DNA from: an uncultured Solirubrobacterales bacterium
Lineage (GTDB): Bacteria; Actinomycetota; Thermoleophilia; Solirubrobacterales; Solirubrobacteraceae
DNA length: 64,000 nucleotides
Reading direction: 5' to 3'
NCBI GenBank assembly: GCA_963808605.1
Contig: CAWEGQ010000009.1
Location: forward strand, 472,697 to 536,696
The position numbers and the translations under genes were made by a program. This document shows positions 48,135 through 60,450 of this stretch, in pieces (positions within the stretch are counted from its first letter, which is position 1; every line of letters starts with the position of its first letter). The notes below the pieces were generated by a model. That model saw only the letters and a program-made list of their open reading frames with translations. It was not told where the DNA came from and searched no databases.

Positions 48135-48937
48135 TGCAGTTAGTGCCGACTCGCCTCGGCGTGCTCGGCTGGCCGGTGGCCCACAGCCGGTCGCCGGCGA
48201 TGCAGAACGCGGCGCTGGCCGCGGTCGGGCTGGAGTCCTGGCGCTACCAGCTGCTCCCGGTTCCGCCCGAGCGCTTCGCCGAAACCGTCGCTGCCCTGCC
48301 CGGCGCCGGCTTCCGCGGGGCCAACGTGACGATTCCTCACAAACGGAGCGCGTTGGCGCTGGCCGACGTGGCCACCGCCCGGGCGCGGGCGATCGGAGCC
48401 GCGAACACGCTCGTGTTCGAGCCCGACGGCACCATCCACGCCGATAACACCGATGCGCCGGCGCTGCTGGCCGCGCTGCCGTTTCCGATGCCCGGGCGCT
48501 CGGCGCTGGTACTCGGGGCGGGCGGCATCGCGCGCGCCGCGGTCTGGGCGCTGCTGGACGCCGGAGCGAGCGAAGTGTCGGTTTGGAACCGCACGCCCGG
48601 CCGGGCTGAGGAGCTTTGCGCAGAGATTGGAGGCCGCCCGGTCCGCGATCTCGCCTCAGCGGACCTGCTCGTCCACTGTACGTCCAGCGGACTGGACAAA
48701 AATGCCTCGGCGTTCAAGCAGCTGCCGCTGAAGGCCGAAAACCTCGATAGGTACGAATGCGTGGTTGATCTGGTCTACAGCGACTCGGGCACCGAGCTAG
48801 TGCGAGCGGCACGCGCGCGCTCGCTGCACGTCGTCGACGGTCTCGAGTTGCTGGTCGGCCAGGGAGCGCTCAGCTTCGAACAGTTCACCGGCCGCCCGGC
48901 CCCGGTGGACGTGATGGACCGAGCGGTGCGGAAGTGA
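48134..48937 (+). CDS. aroE: Shikimate dehydrogenase
   Basis: LGVLGWPVAHSRSPAMQNAA, GANVTIPHK, NTDAPA, LGAGGIARA. GTG start overlaps the mltG stop. Confidence 0.85.
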   Translation: MQLVPTRLGVLGWPVAHSRSPAMQNAALAAVGLESWRYQLLPVPPERFAETVAALPGAGFRGANVTIPHKRSALALADVATARARAIGAANTLVFEPDGTIHADNTDAPALLAALPFPMPGRSALVLGAGGIARAAVWALLDAGASEVSVWNRTPGRAEELCAEIGGRPVRDLASADLLVHCTSSGLDKNASAFKQLPLKAENLDRYECVVDLVYSDSGTELVRAARARSLHVVDGLELLVGQGALSFEQFTGRPAPVDVMDRAVRK

Positions 48938-50724
48938 CCGACAACGTATCCCCGCTGCGACCCGTGCAGGACGGTGCGACCGGCCGCGGGGCGCAGGGTG
49001 CTGGTGGTGTCACCCAACCCTCGCTGCGCGGCGGTTCGGGCCGGTTCCTCACCGACGTGCTGGTCGAGCTCGGATTCGTTGACCGCGAGCGCGTGCAGAA
49101 GGCGATCGAGGAGGCCCGCCAGGCCGGCGTCCCGCCAGAGCGCGTGCTGCTCGACGCGCGCACCATCACCTCCGAGCAGCTCTCTCACGCGATCGCCGAG
49201 CGCTACGGATTGGATCACATCGACCTCGGCGTGTTCAAGGTCGACATGGCGGCGGCCAATCTGCTCAGCGCCTCCGCCGCGAAGCGCTACAGCGCCGTCC
49301 CGGTCGCCTACGTCGATGAGCACACGCTCCTGCTGGCCATGTCTGATCCGGCCAACGTGCTCGCCGTCGACGACATCGCGCTGCTGACCCGGCTGGACAT
49401 TCGCCCGGCCGTCGCCTCCGCCGATGACATCGTCTCGCTGATCACCCGGATGAATCGCTTCGAGGCCGCCGTCCAGGAGGCGGTCGACCAGAGCGAGGAC
49501 GCCGCGGCCCCGCTGGAGATCGTCGACCTGCGCGAGTCCGCCGAGGACGCGCCGGTGATCAAGCTGGTGCACTCGATCATCGCGCAGGCGACCGAGCGGG
49601 GCGCATCCGACATCCACTTCGAGCCGCAGCCCGACTCGACCGGCCGGTCCGGACGCGAATTACGGGTGCGGATGCGGATCGACGGCGTCCTCACCGACGA
49701 GATGATCGTGCCCAAGCGGATGGTGGCCGGCGTCGTCTCGCGGATCAAGATCATGAGTGACCTGGATATCGCCGAGCGCCGCCTGCCGCAGGACGGCCGC
49801 GTCGGACTGACCATCGAAGGCCGCCAGGTCGACGTGCGCGTCGTGACCATCCCGAGCGTGCACGGGGAGTCCGTCGTGCTGCGGATCCTCGACAAGGAGA
49901 GCATCCGGCTGGAGCTCGACCGGCTCGGGATGTCTCCGCCCGAACTCGATCGCTTCCGTCGTTCGTTTCATCGCTCGCACGGGGCCGTGCTGACCACCGG
50001 TCCGACCGGATCCGGCAAGTCCACATCCCTGTACGGCGCGCTGCTCGAGCTCAACACGCCGGAGAAGAACATCATCACGATCGAGGATCCGGTCGAGTAC
50101 CAGATCAAGGGCATCACCCAGATGCAGGTCAACAACAAGGCCGGGCTGACGTTTGCCACCGGCCTGCGCTCGATGATGCGCGCCGATCCCGACATCCTGA
50201 TGGTGGGGGAGATCCGCGACCGCGAGACCGCGCAGATCGCGATCGAGGGAGCGCTGACCGGCCACATGGTGCTCTCGACCCTGCACACCAACGACGCGCC
50301 CTCGGCGATCACCCGGCTGATCGAGATGGGAATCGAGCCGTTCCTGGTCGCCTCCTCGATTGACTGCGTGGTCGCCCAGCGTCTCGCCCGCACGCTCTGC
50401 TCCCACTGCAAGAAACGCACGATCGTTCCCGCCGCGATCCTGCGCGATCACGGCTTCGCCGCCCAGTTCGACATCGAGGCGTATGAGGCGGTCGGTTGCG
50501 TGCGCTGCGGGCAGATGGGCTACCGCGGACGCACCGGGCTGTACGAGGTGATGACCGTGTCGGAGGAGATCCGCTCGCTGATCCTGACGCGCGCATCCGC
50601 CGATCAGATCGCCGCCGTGGCGGTGCGGGAGGGAATGAGGCGTCTACGGGAGGACGGACTCGACAAGGTCAAGTCCGGGCTCACTTCGATGTCCGAAATC
50701 TCCCGGGTCACCGGCAGCGGCTGA
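48934..50724 (+). CDS. pilB: Type IV pilus assembly ATPase PilB (GspE family) with N-terminal T2SSE_N domain
   Basis: GTGA overlap with aroE; Walker A GPTGSGKST; Asp and His boxes; tetracysteine CSHCK...CVRCG. Confidence 0.9.
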   Translation: MTDNVSPLRPVQDGATGRGAQGAGGVTQPSLRGGSGRFLTDVLVELGFVDRERVQKAIEEARQAGVPPERVLLDARTITSEQLSHAIAERYGLDHIDLGVFKVDMAAANLLSASAAKRYSAVPVAYVDEHTLLLAMSDPANVLAVDDIALLTRLDIRPAVASADDIVSLITRMNRFEAAVQEAVDQSEDAAAPLEIVDLRESAEDAPVIKLVHSIIAQATERGASDIHFEPQPDSTGRSGRELRVRMRIDGVLTDEMIVPKRMVAGVVSRIKIMSDLDIAERRLPQDGRVGLTIEGRQVDVRVVTIPSVHGESVVLRILDKESIRLELDRLGMSPPELDRFRRSFHRSHGAVLTTGPTGSGKSTSLYGALLELNTPEKNIITIEDPVEYQIKGITQMQVNNKAGLTFATGLRSMMRADPDILMVGEIRDRETAQIAIEGALTGHMVLSTLHTNDAPSAITRLIEMGIEPFLVASSIDCVVAQRLARTLCSHCKKRTIVPAAILRDHGFAAQFDIEAYEAVGCVRCGQMGYRGRTGLYEVMTVSEEIRSLILTRASADQIAAVAVREGMRRLREDGLDKVKSGLTSMSEISRVTGSG

Positions 50725-50793
50725 GCCGTCCAGACGCGTCCAGCTTTCGCGACGGCCCTCAATACGAGCCTTGTAACTGCCGATAGGGGGCGC

Positions 50794-51888
50794 ATGGAGC
50801 TTGACTTCGCCGACGTCTTGATGGAGGTCGTCGACCGTCGTGCCTCCGACCTCCATCTCACCGCGGGCGCTCCCCCGATGCTGCGCGTGCGCGGGCGCCT
50901 GGCCCCGCTCGAGGGATATCCGGCCCTGACGCCGAGCGACACGCGCGAGATCGTCTATTCGATCCTCTCCAATGCCCAGCGCCAGAAGCTGGAGAACAAC
51001 TGGCAGCTCGACTTCGCCTATCAGATCCCGGGAACCGCCCGGTTCCGGGTCAATGCGTACTTCCAGCGCTCGGCGCTCGGTGCCGCGTTCCGTCTGATCC
51101 CGTTCGAGATCGCGCCCCTGGCTTCGCTTGGATTGCCCCCGGCGGTGGCCGAGTTCGCCAACCGTCCGCGCGGTCTGGTGCTGGTCACCGGTCCCACCGG
51201 CTCAGGGAAATCGACCACGCTCGCCTCACTGCTCGACGTGATCAACATGGAGCGCGAAGAGCACATCATGACGATCGAGGACCCGATCGAGTTCCTCCAT
51301 TCGCACAAGCGCTGCATTGTCAACCAGCGCGAGGTCGGCTCGGACGCCACCAGCTTCGCCGATGCCCTGAAGTCCGCCCTGCGCCAGGACCCCGACGTGA
51401 TCCTGGTCGGCGAGATGCGCGACCTCGAGACGATCGGCACGGCGATCACCGCGGCGGAAACGGGCCATCTCGTGTTCGCCACGCTCCACACCCAGGACAC
51501 GCCGCAGACGATCGACCGCATCATCGACGTGTTCCCATCGGCGCAGCAGGCCCAGGTCCGGGCCCAGCTTTCGGTGGCCCTGCAGGGAATCGTCACGCAG
51601 ACGCTGCTACCCACCGCCGACGGCGCCGGCCGCTGTGTCGCCGCCGAGGTGCTGGTTCCCACTCCGGCCGTGCGCAACCTGATCCGGGAAGGCAAGAGCC
51701 ACCAGATCTACTCGGTGCTGCAGACTGGTGGCGCCCATGGGATGCAGACCATGGACTCGGCGCTGGCCCAACTGGTCCGGGCCGGCAAGATCTCCCGTCA
51801 GCTCGCCGAATCCCGCGCCCACTCGGCCGAGGAGCTCAGGCGCCTGATCGGCGGGGTCGCCACGGGCGGCAGCCAGATGGCGGCGTAG
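50794..51888 (+). CDS. pilT: Type IV pilus retraction ATPase PilT
   Basis: ASDLHLTAGAPP, GPTGSGKSTT, GHLVFATLHT, AIRNLIREGK-like VRNLIREGK motif. Confidence 0.9.
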   Translation: MELDFADVLMEVVDRRASDLHLTAGAPPMLRVRGRLAPLEGYPALTPSDTREIVYSILSNAQRQKLENNWQLDFAYQIPGTARFRVNAYFQRSALGAAFRLIPFEIAPLASLGLPPAVAEFANRPRGLVLVTGPTGSGKSTTLASLLDVINMEREEHIMTIEDPIEFLHSHKRCIVNQREVGSDATSFADALKSALRQDPDVILVGEMRDLETIGTAITAAETGHLVFATLHTQDTPQTIDRIIDVFPSAQQAQVRAQLSVALQGIVTQTLLPTADGAGRCVAAEVLVPTPAVRNLIREGKSHQIYSVLQTGGAHGMQTMDSALAQLVRAGKISRQLAESRAHSAEELRRLIGGVATGGSQMAA

Positions 51889-51892
51889 CGCG

Positions 51893-53101
51893 GTGGCCAC
51901 CTTCCAGTTCAAGGCGATGGACCTCGCGGGCGTGCCCGCCGCCGGCGAGGTGGAGGCGGTGTCCAAGCAGGACGTCGCCGATCAGCTCAGGCAGCGCGGG
52001 CTCGTCGTCATCGACATCGCCCACAAGTACCGCTCCAAGGAGCTCAACCTTGAGCTGTTCGCGCGGGTCAAGGCGAACGATCTCTCCCTGGCCACCCGGC
52101 AGCTCTCGACGATGGTCAGCTCCGGTATGTCGATCCTGCGGGCGCTCTACGTGCTCGAGACGCAGACGAAGTCGAAGCTCCTGCAGAGCACCGTGGTGGC
52201 CGTCCGCAACGACGTCGAGGCCGGCCTGCTGCTGTCCGACGCGCTCGAGCGCCATCCGAAGGTGTTCGGCCCGCTGTACGTCTCGATGGTGCGCGCGGGG
52301 GAGACCGGAGGCGTGCTCGAGGAGTGCCTGCTCCGCGTCGCCGACCAGCTGGAGAAGGATGCCTCGCTGCGTCGCCAAGTGCGCGCCGCGATGGTCTACC
52401 CCGCGGTGGTGATCTCGTTTGCGGTGATCGTCCTGCTGGCGCTGGTGGCTTTCCTGATCCCCGTGTTCGAGGGGGTCTTCAAGGAGTTTCCAGGGAAGCT
52501 GCCCGCCCTCAGTCAGGTCATGGTCGACTTCTCACACCTGCTGACCAAGCAGTGGTACGTGTTGATCGTCTTCGTCGCCGCCGTCGTCTTCGGCTTCCTG
52601 TCGTTCAAGAAGTCGAAATGGGGACGTCCCCATTGGGACGCCTTCAGGCTGCGCGTGCCGATGAAGATCGGCGAGGTCGTCCAGAAGGTCTCGATCGCCC
52701 GCTGGTCGCGCACGCTCTCCTCGCTCACCTCGGCCGGAGTCCCGATCATCCAGGCGCTCGAGATCACCGGCAAGACGGCCGGCAACATGGTGGTGGAGAA
52801 GGCCATGGCGCAGGTGATCAACTCGGTCAAGTCGGGCGGGACGATCTCCGAGCCGCTCAAGCACGCCAGCGTGTTCCCCCCGATGGTCGCTCAGATGGTG
52901 GGCGTCGGCGAGGAGACCGGCGGTCTCGACACGATGCTGAGCAAGATCGCCGACTTCTACGACGACGAGGTCGACGCCGCGGTCAAGGCGCTGACCTCGA
53001 TCCTCGAGCCCGTCATGATCATCGTGGTCGGCGGCATCGTCGGCGTGATCGTGATCTCGATGTACCTGCCGCTGTTCAGCGTTTACAACAGCATCAAGTA
53101 A
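51893..53101 (+). CDS. pilC: Type IV pilus platform protein PilC (GspF family)
   Basis: Two GspF repeats (MVRAGETGG, MVGVGEETGG), three TM segments, 402 aa. Confidence 0.9.
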   Translation: MATFQFKAMDLAGVPAAGEVEAVSKQDVADQLRQRGLVVIDIAHKYRSKELNLELFARVKANDLSLATRQLSTMVSSGMSILRALYVLETQTKSKLLQSTVVAVRNDVEAGLLLSDALERHPKVFGPLYVSMVRAGETGGVLEECLLRVADQLEKDASLRRQVRAAMVYPAVVISFAVIVLLALVAFLIPVFEGVFKEFPGKLPALSQVMVDFSHLLTKQWYVLIVFVAAVVFGFLSFKKSKWGRPHWDAFRLRVPMKIGEVVQKVSIARWSRTLSSLTSAGVPIIQALEITGKTAGNMVVEKAMAQVINSVKSGGTISEPLKHASVFPPMVAQMVGVGEETGGLDTMLSKIADFYDDEVDAAVKALTSILEPVMIIVVGGIVGVIVISMYLPLFSVYNSIK

Positions 53102-54199: not shown

Positions 54200-54850
54200 A
54201 TGGTGCGGTCGATGATCGTCACCGAGGCAGTCGACAGCTATCTGGCCAAGCTGCGGCCCGAGTCCGATCCCGTTCTGGCCGAGATGGAGGCTCATGGCGC
54301 GCGCGATCGGATACCGATTGTCGCCCCTGAAACCGGTGCGTTGCTGCACATCCTGGCTCTGTCCCGGCGCGCCGAAAGGGTGGTCGAGGTGGGCACCGCG
54401 ATCGGGGTCTCGACGCTGTACCTGGCTCGGGCACTGCCGGCCGGCGGCAAGATCGTCTCGTTCGAGATCGATGCCGAGCGCCACGCCGCCGCCCGGGCCT
54501 ATCTCGATCGCGCGGGGGCGAGCGACCGCGCAGATCTTCGACTGCAGGACGCGCGCGAGGGTCTGGCCGGCCTCGAGCCCCCCTTCGACATGGCTTTCAT
54601 CGATGGGGTCAAGGCTCAGTACATCGACTACTTCGACCTGGTGCTGCCGCTGCTGGGTCCCGGCGCGGTGCTGGCGGTCGACAATGTGCTGATGTCGGGC
54701 ACGGTCGCCGAAGGCCGGTCCGATGGCCACTGGACCGACGAGCAGATCGCCACCGCCCGGGCGTTCAATGAGCGCCTGTTGGCCCGGCCCGAACTGGTCG
54801 GCACGGTCACGCCGGTGGGCGACGGCGTGCTGGTCGCGGTGCGAAGGTGA
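54200..54850 (+). CDS. Class I SAM-dependent O-methyltransferase (caffeoyl-CoA OMT-like)
   Basis: VVEVGTAIGVSTLYLA (SAM motif I), FDMAFIDG, LAVDNVL. Confidence 0.85.
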   Translation: MVRSMIVTEAVDSYLAKLRPESDPVLAEMEAHGARDRIPIVAPETGALLHILALSRRAERVVEVGTAIGVSTLYLARALPAGGKIVSFEIDAERHAAARAYLDRAGASDRADLRLQDAREGLAGLEPPFDMAFIDGVKAQYIDYFDLVLPLLGPGAVLAVDNVLMSGTVAEGRSDGHWTDEQIATARAFNERLLARPELVGTVTPVGDGVLVAVRR

Positions 54851-55053: not shown

Positions 55054-55125
55054 ACACTCCGCCTTCCGGGGTAGCACAAATGTCCAATGCGTTCAAGTCG
55101 GCGCAGGCCCCGCCGATACATGCTC

Positions 55126-55218
55126 TGCCAGAGTCAGAGTGCCAAAGGCAAACCGTCTGCGAGGACGGGACGCAAAGCCACGGACCTCTCATGTCAGAGG
55201 GAGCCGGGCTGCCACCAA
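55126..55218 (+). promoter_or_regulatory. c-di-GMP-I (GEMM-I) riboswitch aptamer, copy 1
   Basis: AAAGGCAAACC-[CCGTCT-GCGA-GGACGG]-GACGCAAAGCC-[CGG.CCTCT-loop-AGAGG.CCG]-GGCTGCC. The conserved GGCAAACC and GGGACGCAAAGCC blocks, with a GNRA-capped P2 hairpin between them, match the class I c-di-GMP aptamer architecture. Confidence 0.85.
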
Positions 55219-55309
55219 AGGCTTTACTAGTGCTGTCGTAGTCACTATTGGTGTGCTTGGGGCCCACGGGATCTGGCGTAGACCCAATCCCACGATCCGA
55301 GGAGGATCA

Positions 55310-55747
55310 ATGCTCCACAAGCTCCGCAAGCGCGCCGAGGACGAAAAGGGTTTTACCCTGATCGAGCTCCTCGTCGTCATCCTGATCATCGGCATTCTGG
55401 CCGCGATCGCGATCCCGTCGTTCCTGAACCAGAAGTCCAAGGCCAATGACGCCTCGGCGAAGGAGCTGGCGCGGACCGCTCAGACCACCGCCGAGACGGT
55501 CGCCACCGACCACAACGGCAGCTACACGACGGTGAGCCCGACCACGCTGAACGCGGCTGAGGCCTCGATCCCGATCGTGTCAGGCAACAACGCCTGGCTG
55601 AGCGCGGCGTCCGGCACGGCCACCGGCTATGTCGTGACCACCACTTCGGTCCCGACCGGTAACACGTTCACGATCACCAACACGGCGGGCGTCGTCTCCC
55701 GCACGTGTACCGGTACCACCGGCGGGTGTGTGGGCGGTACCTGGTAG
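55310..55747 (+). CDS. pilA: Type IV pilin (major pilin candidate), copy 1
   Basis: SD GAGGAGG; class III signal peptide MLHKLRKRAEDEKG/FTLIELLVVILIIGILAAIAIP with Glu at +5; C-terminal Cys pair C-TGTTGG-C. Confidence 0.9.
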   Translation: MLHKLRKRAEDEKGFTLIELLVVILIIGILAAIAIPSFLNQKSKANDASAKELARTAQTTAETVATDHNGSYTTVSPTTLNAAEASIPIVSGNNAWLSAASGTATGYVVTTTSVPTGNTFTITNTAGVVSRTCTGTTGGCVGGTW

Positions 55748-55776
55748 TCCACCGCAAACGCAGTTCAACTGTTGTC

Positions 55777-55802
55777 GAGAGGCGGCCTTCGGGCCGCCTC
55801 TC
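55777..55802 (+). terminator. Hairpin terminator after pilin 1
   Basis: GAGAGGCGGCC-TTCG-GGCCGCCTCTC followed by GTGCGTTCT. Confidence 0.6.
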
Positions 55803-55912
55803 GTGCGTTCTGGTGGTCGCGTTTAGGACGAAAGAACGATGCTCGCGCCGGCGCAGATCGTAGATACGTCCAATGCACCTAAGCCCAGTCCGTAGTTTGC
55901 CGATAAGTGCTT

Positions 55913-56005
55913 TGCCAGAGTCAGAGTGCCAAAGGCAAACCGTCCGTGAGGGCGGGACGCAAAGCCACGGACCTCTCAATTCAGAGGGAGCCGGGCTACC
56001 ACCGT
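55913..56005 (+). promoter_or_regulatory. c-di-GMP-I (GEMM-I) riboswitch aptamer, copy 2
   Basis: Same architecture as copy 1. The P2 hairpin is CCGTCC-GTGA-GGGCGG, so pairing-preserving changes and a GNRA loop are retained. Confidence 0.85.
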
Positions 56006-56092
56006 GGGCTTTAGTGCTGTCGTGCCCGGGATGGCGAATGGACGACGGATCTGGTGCGAGATAACCCAATCCACCCGATCCGAGGAGGATCA

Positions 56093-56530
56093 ATGCTCCA
56101 CAAGCTCCGCAAGCGCGCCGAGGACGAGAAGGGTTTTACCCTGATCGAGCTCCTCGTCGTCATCCTGATCATCGGCATTCTGGCCGCGATCGCGATTCCG
56201 TCGTTCCTGAACCAGAAGTCCAAGGCCAATGACGCCTCGGCGAAGGAGCTGGCGCGTACCGCTCAGACCACGGCCGAGACGGTCGCCACCGACCACAACG
56301 GTGACTACTCGACGGTGAGCCCGACGACGCTGAACGCGGCTGAGGCCTCGATCCCGATCGTGTCAGGCAACAACGCCTGGCTGAGCGCGGCGTCCGGCAC
56401 GGCCACCGGCTATGTCGTGACCACCACCTCGGTGCCCACCGGTAACACGTTCACGGTGACCAACGCCTCCGGCGTGATCACCCGAACCTGCACCGGCACC
56501 ACCGGTGGGTGCGTGGGCGGCACCTGGTAA
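56093..56530 (+). CDS. pilA: Type IV pilin, copy 2
   Basis: Prepilin leader and N-terminal helix identical to copy 1. About 7 substitutions, all in the C-terminal globular part. Confidence 0.9.
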   Translation: MLHKLRKRAEDEKGFTLIELLVVILIIGILAAIAIPSFLNQKSKANDASAKELARTAQTTAETVATDHNGDYSTVSPTTLNAAEASIPIVSGNNAWLSAASGTATGYVVTTTSVPTGNTFTVTNASGVITRTCTGTTGGCVGGTW

Positions 56531-56578
56531 CCGGCCGCGATCTGGATCTCGATTCAGGTCACCGGCCCGCAGCAATGT

Positions 56579-56608
56579 CGATGGGGCGGCCTCCGGGCCG
56601 CCCCATCG
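56579..56608 (+). terminator. Hairpin terminator after pilin 2
   Basis: CGATGGGGCGGCC-TCCG-GGCCGCCCCATCG followed by GCGTTTCC. Confidence 0.65.
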
Positions 56609-56653
56609 GCGTTTCCGGCCCGGGCTGAGTCAAGTCCGGATGGCCGCCCGCCG

Positions 56654-58399
56654 ATGCCTCTCTCGATGCACAGCTACCGACGCCACCCGTCGCTGATCGC
56701 CGCGCTGATCGTCCTCGCGGTCACCGCGGTTGCGTTGACGTTGGCGCGCCGGCCTCAGCAACTCGCGCTGCCCAAGGCCACCGCGGTCGCCGCGGTGTTG
56801 CGCGACGGTCCGGCCGCCCGCGACCTACGCCAATCCGGGTGGAACCACGTGTCGGTTGACATGCTCGACAGCCGGCTCGAGCGGGTCAGCTTCTACTTCC
56901 ACGGGCGAGTGGTGTTCGAGGGAGCGGTCGACCGTAGCGGGTCGGTCGCACACGCCTACGAGTTCGCGGGCCGAACGGTGCCCTACGGCAGCCCGCTCGC
57001 GTTCGAGCCGTCCGTGCTGATCGGCCTGGCCGTGCTGTTCGCGATGATGACGCTGGTGGTTCCGCTGAGGCGGATCCGGAACCTCGATGTGGCCGCCTTG
57101 CTGTCGTTCCTCGCGCCGGTCGTCCTTCTGCAGCAGCGCTACGTCGACGCATCGGTGATCTCGGCGGTTCCCGGGATGTCGTACCTGGCGCTGCGCTGCG
57201 CCTGGGCCGCGCTCGGCCCGCCACCTCAGCCGGCCGGCTCGACGCCGCTCTACCTGCAGCTGACCGCCAGATGGCAGGACGCCGAGCGCCTGCGGGTGCT
57301 TCGCCTGACCTTGGGCGCGCTCGCGCTGGTGTTCCTGCTGGTCGGCGTCAGCTCTCCCGGCGCGGTCGATGTCGCCTACGCGGTGATGGAGGGCGCGACG
57401 AAGCTACTGCACGGCGTTCTTCCCTACGGGCACATGCCGGGCGACGTCGTCCACGGTGACACCTATCCGATCCTCAGTTACCTGCTCTACACGCCCCTCG
57501 CCGCGATCTCGCCGGTCGGGTCGACCTGGGATTCGGTCGACCTCGCCCTGGGAGCGGCGGTCCTGGCCGCGCTGTCCGCGGCCGGGGCGGCGTTCTGCTT
57601 CGCCGCCGGTCCCCGCCGCCGTCGCGCCAAGCGCTCAGCCGCCGCGGAGGCCCACGGACTGCGGACGGCGATCGCCTGGCTGTCGTTCCCGCCCCTGCTG
57701 ATCGCCGTGTCGACCGGAACCTCGGACGTCATCCTCGGAGCGATGCTCGTGTTCGCGATCGTGCTCTGGCGGCGGCCCGCCGCCTCCACGGCGGTGCTGG
57801 CCGCGGCAGGCTGGTTCAAGCTCGCACCGTTCGCGCTCCTGCCGCTCTGGCTCGCGCCGCTCCGCGGCCGCCGGCTGGTGGCCGCCATCGCGGCGATCGC
57901 CGGCGTCTGCACCGCGATGCTGGCGGTGCTGGTCGGAGTCGGAGGCACGGGAGGGTTGGCGGCAATGGCGCGCGCGATGGGCTACCAGTTCCAGCGCGGC
58001 TCGCCGCAATCGCCCTGGGCGGCGCTGGGGCTCAGCGCCATCCAACCGCTCGGCCAGGCCGCCGTACTGGCGCTGATCGCCGGCGCCTGCGTGCGGCTGC
58101 GCAGGGATCCCGGTCTGGCCACGCCGGAGCGGATGGCCGCACTCGCCGCCGCCGTGCTGCTGGGGCTGCAGCTGGCGGCGGACTACTGGGCCTTCCTGTA
58201 CCTCGCCTGGATCGTCCCCTTGATCGCGCTGTCGGTGCTGGCCGACGCCGCACCGGTCGCCGCGGCGTACCGGGCCGCGCCGGAGCGCCACTCGTCCCGT
58301 GCGGATCTCGACCTGCTGACGCCGGCCGGTCAGGTCATCGCCACAGCGCCCGATTTGCTCTCAACATCGGGCCAGATCCCGCCGATACACGCCTCGTGA
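56654..58399 (+). CDS. Polytopic membrane protein, putative GT-C-fold glycosyltransferase (DUF2029/GT87-like)
   Basis: More than 12 TM helices; an extracytoplasmic loop with GVLPYGHMPGDVVHGDTYPILSYLLYTP resembles polyprenyl-phosphate-sugar-dependent transferases. Family call tentative. Confidence 0.6.
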   Translation: MPLSMHSYRRHPSLIAALIVLAVTAVALTLARRPQQLALPKATAVAAVLRDGPAARDLRQSGWNHVSVDMLDSRLERVSFYFHGRVVFEGAVDRSGSVAHAYEFAGRTVPYGSPLAFEPSVLIGLAVLFAMMTLVVPLRRIRNLDVAALLSFLAPVVLLQQRYVDASVISAVPGMSYLALRCAWAALGPPPQPAGSTPLYLQLTARWQDAERLRVLRLTLGALALVFLLVGVSSPGAVDVAYAVMEGATKLLHGVLPYGHMPGDVVHGDTYPILSYLLYTPLAAISPVGSTWDSVDLALGAAVLAALSAAGAAFCFAAGPRRRRAKRSAAAEAHGLRTAIAWLSFPPLLIAVSTGTSDVILGAMLVFAIVLWRRPAASTAVLAAAGWFKLAPFALLPLWLAPLRGRRLVAAIAAIAGVCTAMLAVLVGVGGTGGLAAMARAMGYQFQRGSPQSPWAALGLSAIQPLGQAAVLALIAGACVRLRRDPGLATPERMAALAAAVLLGLQLAADYWAFLYLAWIVPLIALSVLADAAPVAAAYRAAPERHSSRADLDLLTPAGQVIATAPDLLSTSGQIPPIHAS

Positions 58400-59691: not shown

Positions 59692-60450
59692 ATGCCCGTC
59701 GCCGGAATCGCCCTCGCCGCGCTCAGCGGACTGCTGTTCGGCTCGTTCTTCAACGTGGTCGCCTACCGCCTCCCCCTGGGGCAATCGCTCGCCGTCCCCG
59801 GCTCGCACTGCCCCAGCTGTGGGGTACCGGTCAAGCCCTATGACAACGTGCCGGTGCTCGGCTGGCTGTTGCTGCGGGGACGCTGTCGCGCCTGCCGGAT
59901 CCCAATTTCGGCGCGCTACCCGATCGTGGAGGCATTGACGGCGATCCTGGCGGTGGCGGTCGTGGTGGTCAAGCACTCCCCACGCGACATCGTGCTCGGG
60001 CTGGTGCTCGTCGCGGTGCTCGTGCCGACCGCGCTGATCGACCTCGACAACCGCATCATTCCCAACAAGATCATGCTTCCGGCCGCCATTCTGGCGGTGG
60101 CGATCGGTTTGGCGCTCGCACCGAGCCACGTCCCCGAGCAGCTGATCGCCGGCGCGGCGGCGGGCGGATTCCTGCTGTTGTTCGCGCTGGCCTACCCCCG
60201 CGGGATGGGGATGGGCGACGTCAAGCTCGCCGCAGTGCTCGGCCTGTTCCTCGGCCGGTCGGTGGCCGTGGCGATCCTCGGCGGGGTCCTCGCCGGGACC
60301 GTGATCGGACTCGGGATCATGGCCAAGGTGGGCGTGGAGAAAGGGCGAAAGACGGCCGTTCCGTTCGGCCCCTTCCTCGCGCTGGGCGGGATCGTCGGGC
60401 TGCTCCTCGGGCCGACGCTCGTCCACTGGTATCTGCACACCGCGGTCTGA
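59692..60450 (+). CDS. pilD: Prepilin peptidase / N-methyltransferase PilD (A24 family)
   Basis: Zinc-ribbon CPSCG...CRAC; aspartyl protease motifs LIDLDN and GMGMGDVKL. Confidence 0.9.
   Translation: MPVAGIALAALSGLLFGSFFNVVAYRLPLGQSLAVPGSHCPSCGVPVKPYDNVPVLGWLLLRGRCRACRIPISARYPIVEALTAILAVAVVVVKHSPRDIVLGLVLVAVLVPTALIDLDNRIIPNKIMLPAAILAVAIGLALAPSHVPEQLIAGAAAGGFLLLFALAYPRGMGMGDVKLAAVLGLFLGRSVAVAILGGVLAGTVIGLGIMAKVGVEKGRKTAVPFGPFLALGGIVGLLLGPTLVHWYLHTAV

Follow-up and report, generated by a model that had tools for sequence, protein, structure and literature searches.

Class I cyclic di-GMP (c-di-GMP) riboswitches (c-di-GMP-I, or GEMM-I; Rfam family RF01051) are recognized by a stem of 2 plus 6 bp with 3-nucleotide (nt) internal loops, a GNRA loop, and an AAA linker, and GEMM RNAs have been tied to pilus genes since their first description in 2007 (PMC1950547). 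Here, we analyze two predicted riboswitches of this class, each in the leader of a type IV pilin gene, in a 64-kb stretch of contig CAWEGQ010000009.1 from an uncultured Solirubrobacterales bacterium (the window; G+C content, 68.5%). Like the Vc2 and Vc1 RNAs of Vibrio cholerae, they have a three-helix junction, a GNRA loop, an AAA linker, and a G20/A47/C92 pocket. They also share with GEMM-I RNAs a place in the 5′ leader of a surface or motility gene, and they belong to the GYRA-loop type that lacks a receptor and has a bulged A in helix P3 (PMC1950547). Unlike in Vc2 and Vc1, helix P1 is very short (3 to 4 bp), the aptamer is nested in a conserved outer helix (P0), the expression platform is a Shine-Dalgarno (SD) hairpin without a terminator, and the host belongs to an uncultured, high-GC actinobacterial order.

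In the monoderm Clostridioides difficile, the c-di-GMP riboswitch Cdi-2-4 likewise lies directly upstream of a major type IV pilin gene, pilA1, and acts as an ON switch; it is a class II RNA that couples c-di-GMP to pilus formation by transcription antitermination, and it controls only one pilin gene, from which transcription reads through into the pil operon (PMC6366702; Bordeleau 2015). The window RNAs differ in being class I, in having no terminator, and in occurring as one copy for each of two to three pilin paralogues. Riboswitches of class I often occur in tandem, and several class I aptamers within ∼1 kb are also known from the tandem riboswitches of Bacillus thuringiensis (Bc3-5), where they stand in series in one leader, serve one gene, and sharpen the response (PMC4759541, PMC9481103). 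We rejected the window pair as a tandem riboswitch of that kind, since a pilin open reading frame (55310–55747), a hairpin (55776–55803), and a second set of promoter-like boxes separate the two aptamers. In one full-text literature search, “Solirubrobacter” and “riboswitch” were found together only in a single paper, on Mycobacterium genomes, in which each word appears once.

Rfam cmscan of the whole window at curated gathering thresholds gave exactly two matches, both to RF03167 of clan CL00126 and both reaching the 59-bit threshold of that model. Two lower-scoring CL00126 matches at the same sites, which also reached their own threshold, were suppressed. No further aptamer was found in the window, where the next best model match scored 14 bits (E = 0.77). 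The matches and the genes that follow them are listed below.

55138–55217, + strand: c-di-GMP-I aptamer copy 1 (Rfam, 61.9 bits, E = 3.4e-12)
55310–55747, + strand: pilin 1, type IV pilin precursor of 145 amino acids (Pfam N_methyl)
55925–56004, + strand: c-di-GMP-I aptamer copy 2 (Rfam, 64.9 bits, E = 4.8e-13)
56093–56530, + strand: pilin 2, type IV pilin precursor of 145 amino acids (Pfam N_methyl, E = 4.9e-09)

The region that drew our attention, 55913–56005, consists of aptamer copy 2 and a conserved 12-nt 5′ box, UGCCAGAGUCAG. A preliminary description of this region had proposed that the second pilin has its own aptamer, and the Rfam match at 55925–56004, 88 nt upstream of the pilin 2 start, bears this out. 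The ATG start codons of the two genes (55310 and 56093) each lie ∼90 nt 3′ of an aptamer, and both products carry the prokaryotic N-terminal methylation motif that marks type IV pilin precursors (Pfam). Judged by sequence and predicted structure, both leaders hold intact class I c-di-GMP aptamers, and we consider it likely that 55925–56004 is a functional, canonical aptamer of this class in a self-contained second tandem pilin cassette.

The P1-P2-P3 junction layout is present in both copies, in the sequence as well as in the cmscan alignment. In copy 2, P1 pairs GUG (55926–55928) with CAC (56000–56002), and the other two helices are placed as follows.

55935–55960, + strand: P2 hairpin of copy 2, with a 2-bp plus 6-bp stem and 3-nt internal loops (cmscan alignment)
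55963–55997, + strand: P3 hairpin of copy 2, with a bulged A at 55967, a CCUCU/AGAGG distal stem, and the loop CAAUUC at 55977–55982

The P2 tetraloop is GUGA (GYRA type; 55946–55949), the AAA linker lies at 55961–55963, and P3 of the window aptamers has the bulged A and no 11-nt receptor, as in other GYRA-type GEMM members (PMC1950547). The minimum-free-energy fold of copy 2 returns both P2 and P3 (z = −3.1). We take G20, A47, and C92 (Vc2 numbering) to be the nucleotides that contact the ligand in the crystal structures; their equivalents in copy 2 are 55934, 55961, and 55999, respectively. Across the family of 51 aptamers introduced next, the G20 equivalent is G in 51/51, the A47 equivalent is A in 51/51, and the C92 equivalent is C in 48/51.

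A search with pilin 2, limited to one genome per species, yielded 80 loci, all from Solirubrobacterales or Solirubrobacteraceae; the nearest relatives of the window are metagenome-assembled Solirubrobacterales genomes. A covariance model built from the two window aptamers and run on these loci found 49 further full-length aptamers (60 to 101 bits) in 36 of them. All 51 aptamers are on the pilin strand, with the SD and ATG of a pilin gene ∼85 to 95 nt downstream, and 12 loci have two to three aptamer-pilin cassettes inside 6.4 kb. In the alignment of the 51 sequences, standard pairs fill 98.9% of the pair cells and both sides have changed in 10 of 22 pairs; none of 500 shuffles matched the observed covariation, and sliding the 3′ partners lowered pairing to 34 to 48%. 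P2 (helix 3) is 99.1% paired, with four pairs changed on both sides, and P3 (helices 4 and 5) is 97.6 to 99.2% paired, again with four such pairs. RNAalifold recovered P2 and P3 from an independent MAFFT alignment of 39 full leaders. These patterns argue that the RNA structure of the Solirubrobacterales pilin leader family is under selection. Broken helices in the leaders of relatives had been named beforehand as the observation that would speak against such selection; a lost P3 was found only in more distant pilin leaders, where it is consistently swapped for a mini-hairpin, and the 49 closer aptamers keep 98.9% of their pairs.

The two 80-nt window aptamers align without gaps and differ at seven positions, which are given here as changes from copy 1 to copy 2 with copy 2 coordinates.

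55945 (aptamer position 21): U to C, turning a U.G pair into C-G
55947 (position 23): C to U, turning the loop GCGA into GUGA
55952 (position 28): A to G, turning a U-A pair into U.G
55979–55980 (positions 55–56): UG to AU, in the P3 loop
55998 (position 74): G to A, in the junction nucleotide directly 5′ of the C92 equivalent
56004 (position 80): A to G, at the 3′ end

Five of these had been described correctly: the two that change P2 from CCGUCU/GGACGG to CCGUCC/GGGCGG, the one that leaves a GNRA loop in both copies, and the two that change the P3 loop from CAUGUC to CAAUUC while its CCUCU/AGAGG stem stays the same. The G-to-A change at 55998 and the A-to-G change at 56004 had been overlooked. 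The direction implied in that first comparison, from copy 1 to copy 2, is reversed by outgroup comparison: the P2 of copy 2 matches the family consensus, and that of copy 1 is derived. Among the relatives, the P2 pair at positions 19 and 28 is U.G in 27, C-G in 22, and U-A in 4, and that at positions 21 and 26 is C-G in 47 and U.G in 4, so that both states of each pair seen in the window recur.

As had been claimed, the substitutions spare pairs and conserved blocks: none of the seven breaks a pair, and none falls in a column that is invariant across the 49 relatives. When seven substitutions were placed at random with a transition-to-transversion ratio of 2:1, the probability of breaking no pair was 0.04 and that of breaking no pair and also hitting no invariant column was 0.0056. 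For a comparison of rates, the two pilins have 95% protein identity, a synonymous divergence (dS) of 0.19, a nonsynonymous divergence (dN) of 0.027, and a proportion of synonymous differences (pS) of 0.167. Against this last value, the probability of at most 7 changes in 80 aptamer sites is 0.03 and that of at most 2 in 46 paired sites is 0.012; the aptamer is under-diverged relative to the synonymous divergence of the adjoining pilin genes. The pattern of the seven differences therefore exceeds chance. The two stem changes within the window are one-sided wobble transitions that alone prove little, and the case for structural selection is carried by the relatives together with the placement and rate tests. 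Of the choice posed in the preliminary description, between selection on structure and a decaying duplicate, the first part stands on these tests and on the 98.9% pairing among relatives; gene conversion, which we take up below, had been left out of the choice.

Conserved boxes and hairpins flank each cassette. The second cassette would run from promoter-like boxes through the 5′ box, the aptamer, an 88-nt expression platform, and pilin 2 to a terminator-like hairpin.

55084–55090, + strand: upstream box ATGTCCA, cassette 1
55114–55119, + strand: −10-like box CGATAC, cassette 1
55776–55803, + strand: terminator-like 12-bp GC hairpin in the gap between pilin 1 and cassette 2 (−31.3 kcal/mol, z = −4.65)
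55866–55872, + strand: upstream box ACGTCCA, cassette 2, conserved, possibly an operator or UP-like element
55879–55884, + strand: putative −35-like box CTAAGC, cassette 2, corresponding to a conserved gTcAA box in relatives
55901–55906, + strand: putative −10-like box CGATAA, cassette 2
56574–56613, + strand: terminator-like 18-bp GC hairpin after pilin 2 (−40.8 kcal/mol, z = −5.6), with a weak U tract

The CGAT core is invariant in 39/39 aligned leaders and lies ∼7 nt upstream of UGCCAGAG; in relatives, the gTcAA box is found 16 to 17 nt upstream of the CGATA(C/A) box. We infer an operator or UP-like box, a −35 box, a −10 box, and a transcript start near UGCCAGAG. With promoter-like boxes and a terminator-like hairpin to itself, each cassette looks like a separate transcription unit. 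The consensus aAACGTCCA, which keeps a constant distance (∼35 nt) upstream of the CGATA box in ∼50 leaders, may be a transcription factor site acting on all pilin cassettes.

Between aptamer and start codon, the alignment of 39 leaders shows a series of conserved blocks: GGCUY, GUGCUGUCG, GGnUGGCGA, GGGAUCUGGCG, ACCCAAUC, and GAUCC-n-AGGAGGAUCC-AUG. The elements of the predicted expression platform are as follows.

55126–55135, + strand: 5′ box UGCCAGAGUC, cassette 1, identical to the box of copy 2
55268–55278, + strand: distal box GGGAUCUGGCG, cassette 1
55282–55292, + strand: C-rich box ACCCAAUC(C), cassette 1
55913–55922, + strand: 5′ box UGCCAGAGUC, cassette 2, conserved, the 5′ strand of P0 and probably located at the 5′ end of the mRNA
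56007–56012, + strand: GGCUUU, a possible P1-extension strand that would pair with AGAGUC at 55917–55922, with weak support
56046–56056, + strand: distal box CGGAUCUGGUG, cassette 2, the 3′ strand of P0
56064–56072, + strand: C-rich box ACCCAAUCC, nearly invariant in the leader alignment
56077–56091, + strand: SD hairpin of copy 2, in which the anti-SD GAUCC (56077–56081) pairs with GGAUC (56087–56091)

P0 is a long-range helix of 7 plus 2 bp that encloses the whole aptamer and ∼45 nt of linker and spans ∼140 nt. RNAalifold pairs UGCCAGA.UC with GG.UCUGGYG, with covariation present, which places 55913–55922 against 56047–56056 in copy 2 and 55126–55135 against 55269–55278 in copy 1. Compensatory cases are ACCAGA/UCUGGU in L046, GCCACA/UGUGGC in L045:4680, and CG/CG in L006:1982 (L numbers denote relative loci), and the P0 duplex energy was better than that of shuffles (z = −2.5), with P ≤ 0.05 in 93% of leaders.

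The SD hairpin has 5 bp (−7.3 kcal/mol, 92% of the ensemble, z = −1.6) around the SD GAGGAGG at 56082–56088, and its compensatory variants include CUUCC/GGAAG (L045:4680), CUCC/GGAG (L014), and CCUC/GAGG (L041). Within the distal box, GGGAUC could also pair with the anti-SD GAUCCC (main group, −9 to −17 kcal/mol), and here L014:2208 has a compensatory change, GGGGU/ACUCC. Both the minimum-free-energy fold and the centroid fold of 55913–56020 contain the pairing AGAGUC:GGCUUU, and GGCUY is conserved in place. No firm pairing partner emerged for the G-poor, C-rich box ACCCAAUC(C), which separates the distal box from the SD hairpin. It may pair with the linker GGnUGG or with GGGAU, alternatives that appeared in constrained folds, or it may serve to load Rho. 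A column-pair scan for alternative helices returned many GCCA/UGGC complementarities, too redundant to choose between. No intrinsic terminator-like site was found on the + strand of either window leader, and we therefore reject transcription attenuation by a classical terminator.

With a conserved SD hairpin, a GGGAUC segment that has two alternative partners, and no terminator, the modeled output is most likely control of translation initiation. Binding of c-di-GMP would close P1, and this closure would alter the pairing of P0, in which UGCCAGAGUC pairs with GGAUCUGGYG. In an ON model, the ligand-stabilized P1 and the short AGAGUC:GGCUUU extension would take the inner part of the 5′ box, and the freed GGGAUC would capture the anti-SD GAUCC(C), leaving the SD open. 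We lean slightly toward such an ON switch, in which c-di-GMP would raise pilin synthesis, because pilA1 sets a precedent (PMC6366702) and because the 5′ box can be read as taking part in strand exchange. Strand exchange is favored by L006:1982, where compensatory changes are found in both alternative partners of the 5′ box.

Several observations weigh against the picture of a functional, self-contained cassette that switches in this way. P1 consists of only 3 bp and an A.C mismatch in both window copies, and the loop of the SD hairpin holds part of the SD unpaired. The P1 extension AGAGUC:GGCUYU gave a duplex no better than shuffles (z = −0.3), and as a switching element we retain it only as a weak hypothesis. 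In the ribosum-scored consensus fold, P0, P1, P2, and P3 can coexist, so P0 and the aptamer need not be mutually exclusive. When 50 leaders were folded up to the start codon with a constrained partition function, SD accessibility did not change consistently: it was 0.54 in the bound state versus 0.53 in the free state, and it moved in one direction in 8 leaders and in the opposite direction in 6. Nor did it change in constrained folds of the two window leaders that included 18 nt of coding sequence, which pairs with the 5′ end. The released GGGAU is, in some constrained folds, paired with the ACCCAAUCCC box and not with the anti-SD. A scan of the leaders for sigma-70 consensus promoters found nothing, and the promoter boxes are assigned by conservation alone. 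Finally, gene conversion inflates the likeness of the two window copies.

It is possible, if on balance doubtful, that the same functional aptamers form an OFF switch, in which the ligand would stabilize P1 and P0 and lock GGGAUC away, so that the anti-SD pairs with the SD and less pilin is translated. The coexistence of P0 with an intact aptamer and P1 in the consensus fold fits this direction, as the helices are compatible and plausibly stabilize each other, and so does the lack of significance of the P1 extension that the ON model requires. Constrained folds of copy 2 also gave a slightly higher SD accessibility without P1 (0.76) than with it (0.68), and both ON and OFF switches are known among c-di-GMP riboswitches of class I (PMC4744006, PMC6366702). 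However, the only pilin riboswitch studied, that of pilA1, is an ON switch (PMC6366702), simple coexistence of P0 and the aptamer leaves the ligand no obvious competing structure, and the double compensation in L006:1982 favors strand exchange.

We think it unlikely that the output is instead transcript elongation or stability, for example, through Rho-dependent termination at the C-rich ACCCAAUC(C), gated by the partner of the distal box. Such an output would account for a conserved, G-poor C-rich box (56064–56072) without a firm partner and for leaders without an intrinsic terminator, and in constrained folds of copy 1, L001, and L004, GGGAU pairs with AUCCC of the C-rich box and not with the anti-SD. 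The proposal is purely inferential, however, and the SD hairpin with its compensatory variants points to the ribosome-binding site as the target.

The history of the duplication bears on how far the likeness of the two aptamers can be trusted. The promoter flank of window copy 1 has a similarity of 0.80 to that of the first cassette of L001 (versus 0.58), and the flank of copy 2 has a similarity of 0.76 to that of the second cassette (versus 0.59). As the flanks are orthologous by position, the tandem duplication predates the divergence of the window genome and L001. Within L001, the two aptamers and linkers are 100% identical, and in-genome pairs in L003, L008, and L055 are 97 to 99% identical, despite promoter flanks that are only 52 to 64% identical in these four loci. 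This indicates concerted evolution of riboswitch-plus-pilin cassettes, most simply by gene conversion. The near-identity of aptamers beside diverged flanks, together with the positional orthology to L001, would also be expected if copy 2 were intact only through overwriting by copy 1, in which case it would be under no independent selection and might regulate nothing. We find this highly improbable. It is copy 2 and not copy 1 that carries the family-consensus P2, and the seven differences of copy 2 avoid pairs and invariant columns. Moreover, in-genome pairs at 70 to 89% identity (L006, L016, L023, L030, L002, L007, L014, and L045) all retain complete aptamers, and the linker of window copy 2 has only 62% identity to that of copy 1 with every conserved box kept; selection is still needed to explain these diverged pairs and this diverged linker.

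The choice of Rfam model also needs comment, as the preliminary description had proposed alignment to RF01051, and the best model for both window copies is RF03167, the c-di-GMP-I-GGC variant. The backbones are close (e.g., GCCACGG...AGCCGGGCUGCC), but the window family has A where the GGC model has G after CGC. We inferred the definition of the GGC variant from the RF03167 model consensus and one true member. The consensus has G in place of the A47 equivalent (model position 37, CGC-G-AAGCC), and this position is A in both window copies and in all 49 relatives; GACGCGAAGCC was found in none of the 80 related loci. In the metagenome locus L081, the true GGC-type aptamer carries the G and reaches 76.5 bits, and a classical intrinsic terminator comes after it. 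The relatives score 60 to 70 bits on RF03167 or 41 to 62 bits on RF01051 (threshold, 35), those just below the RF03167 threshold being reported as RF01051. From the A at model position 37 and the RF01051 matches of relatives, we assign the window aptamers to canonical c-di-GMP-I, with a GGC label that reflects only backbone similarity, and the assignment to class I made in the preliminary description holds. Given the canonical G20, A47, and C92 equivalents, c-di-GMP is the expected ligand. L081 is the metagenome contig Ga0209515_10000418, which has six GGC-type aptamers within 14 kb, the terminator standing after the first.

L081 2523–2610, 6457–6592, 7532–7612, 7808–7942, 8698–8819, and 8920–9021: RF03167 aptamers

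In variants that bind cyclic AMP-GMP (c-AMP-GMP), the change at the G20 position is to A. We give almost no weight to the idea that the window aptamers are such variants, or GGC-type ones, that sense something other than c-di-GMP: RF03167 is the best model and the junction nucleotide next to the C92 equivalent is A in copy 2 and G in copy 1, but that nucleotide varies freely in the family (G in 35, A in 14, U in 2), the diagnostic G of RF03167 is A in 51/51 leaders, GACGCGAAGCC occurs in 0/80 loci, the true GGC-type member has the G at 76.5 bits, relatives under the RF03167 threshold score as RF01051, and the ligand-contacting G20 position, which is altered in c-AMP-GMP variants (GEMM-Ib) (PMC9481103), is G in 51/51.

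The wider neighborhood of the pilin cassettes includes genes for pilus assembly, identified by Pfam.

48934–53101, + strand: pilus machinery block
48934–50724, + strand: PilB-like ATPase (T2SSE and MshEN)
50794–51888, + strand: PilT-like ATPase (T2SSE)
51893–53101, + strand: PilC-like platform protein (T2SSF)
59692–60450, + strand: PilD-like prepilin peptidase (A24_N_bact and Peptidase_A24)

The MshEN domain of MshE binds c-di-GMP through a 24-residue motif (PMC5013675). A pattern search of the PilB-like MshEN domain with the strict form of this motif (RLGxx(L/V/I)...) gave no match, and no GGDEF motif was found in the open reading frames of the window. The riboswitches may be the main c-di-GMP input of the pilus cluster. 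Directly after the pilins, at 56654–58399, there is a GT87-like glycosyltransferase with a weak Pfam match (24.9 bits against a cutoff of 25), and an O-methyltransferase lies 5′ of the pilins at 54200–54850; both could have a role in pilin modification.

In ∼38 pilin loci with more distant pilins, model matches at the equivalent place were only weak. The leaders there, a type not present in the window, have a truncated P3.

L079:2065–2227, L076:2839–3005, and L025:2864–3005: examples of truncated-P3 leaders, with ∼35 further loci

They keep the frame of the family (CGATG, GCTGACAAGCCAG, a distal GGGCUGGCGCCC box, and a GGAUCCUAGGAGGAUUC hairpin) and the 5′ half of the aptamer (CAAGGCAA, a stem, and GGCAAAGCC). 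P3 is reduced to AGCC-GGC-GGCU, a mini-hairpin of 3 to 4 bp, the P2 loop is non-GNRA, and the junction that bears C92 is absent. Ten such loci gave no Rfam match at E ≤ 1. Single-sequence folds show that the P2-like hairpin persists across many different stem sequences, and in the covariance-model alignment it is 95.5% paired, with four pairs changed on both sides; the mini-P3 shows no variation that would put its pairing to the test, and the closing helix is only 64.7% paired. On these comparisons, the truncated-P3 leader reads as a remodeled, conserved RNA rather than the product of random decay, and it may be a new GEMM-I variant or a ligand-independent derivative.

Taken together with the window pair, these leaders raise the prospect that the pilin leaders exceed ordinary c-di-GMP-I switches, with window copies tuned to different thresholds and a new variant class in distant relatives, a prospect that we consider tentative and probably too generous. 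The window aptamers differ in their P1/junction context and in their platform linker and could therefore have different c-di-GMP thresholds. If so, the cell would change which pilin paralogue is made as c-di-GMP rises, and the truncated-P3 leaders could be a new variant riboswitch class in which ligand recognition is altered or lost.

The window pair is a genuine but ordinary example of a known riboswitch class, and knowledge of the class itself is unchanged by it. What is particular to the pair is the host order, the arrays of two to three in which every pilin paralogue has an aptamer to itself, the enclosing P0, and the concerted evolution of the cassettes. Enclosure of the aptamer by P0 is unusual among class I c-di-GMP riboswitches and, with the truncated-P3 sister leaders, is the part of specialist interest. 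The cassette data show concerted evolution of duplicated riboswitch-plus-gene units, and the 51 natural variants, including in-genome pairs at 70 to 100% identity, provide a test set for the tuning of class I aptamers and platforms. For the organisms, the finding extends control of type IV pilin production by c-di-GMP to an order of soil Actinomycetota that is abundant but almost uncultured, and it suggests that Solirubrobacterales couple surface attachment or motility to c-di-GMP via RNA.

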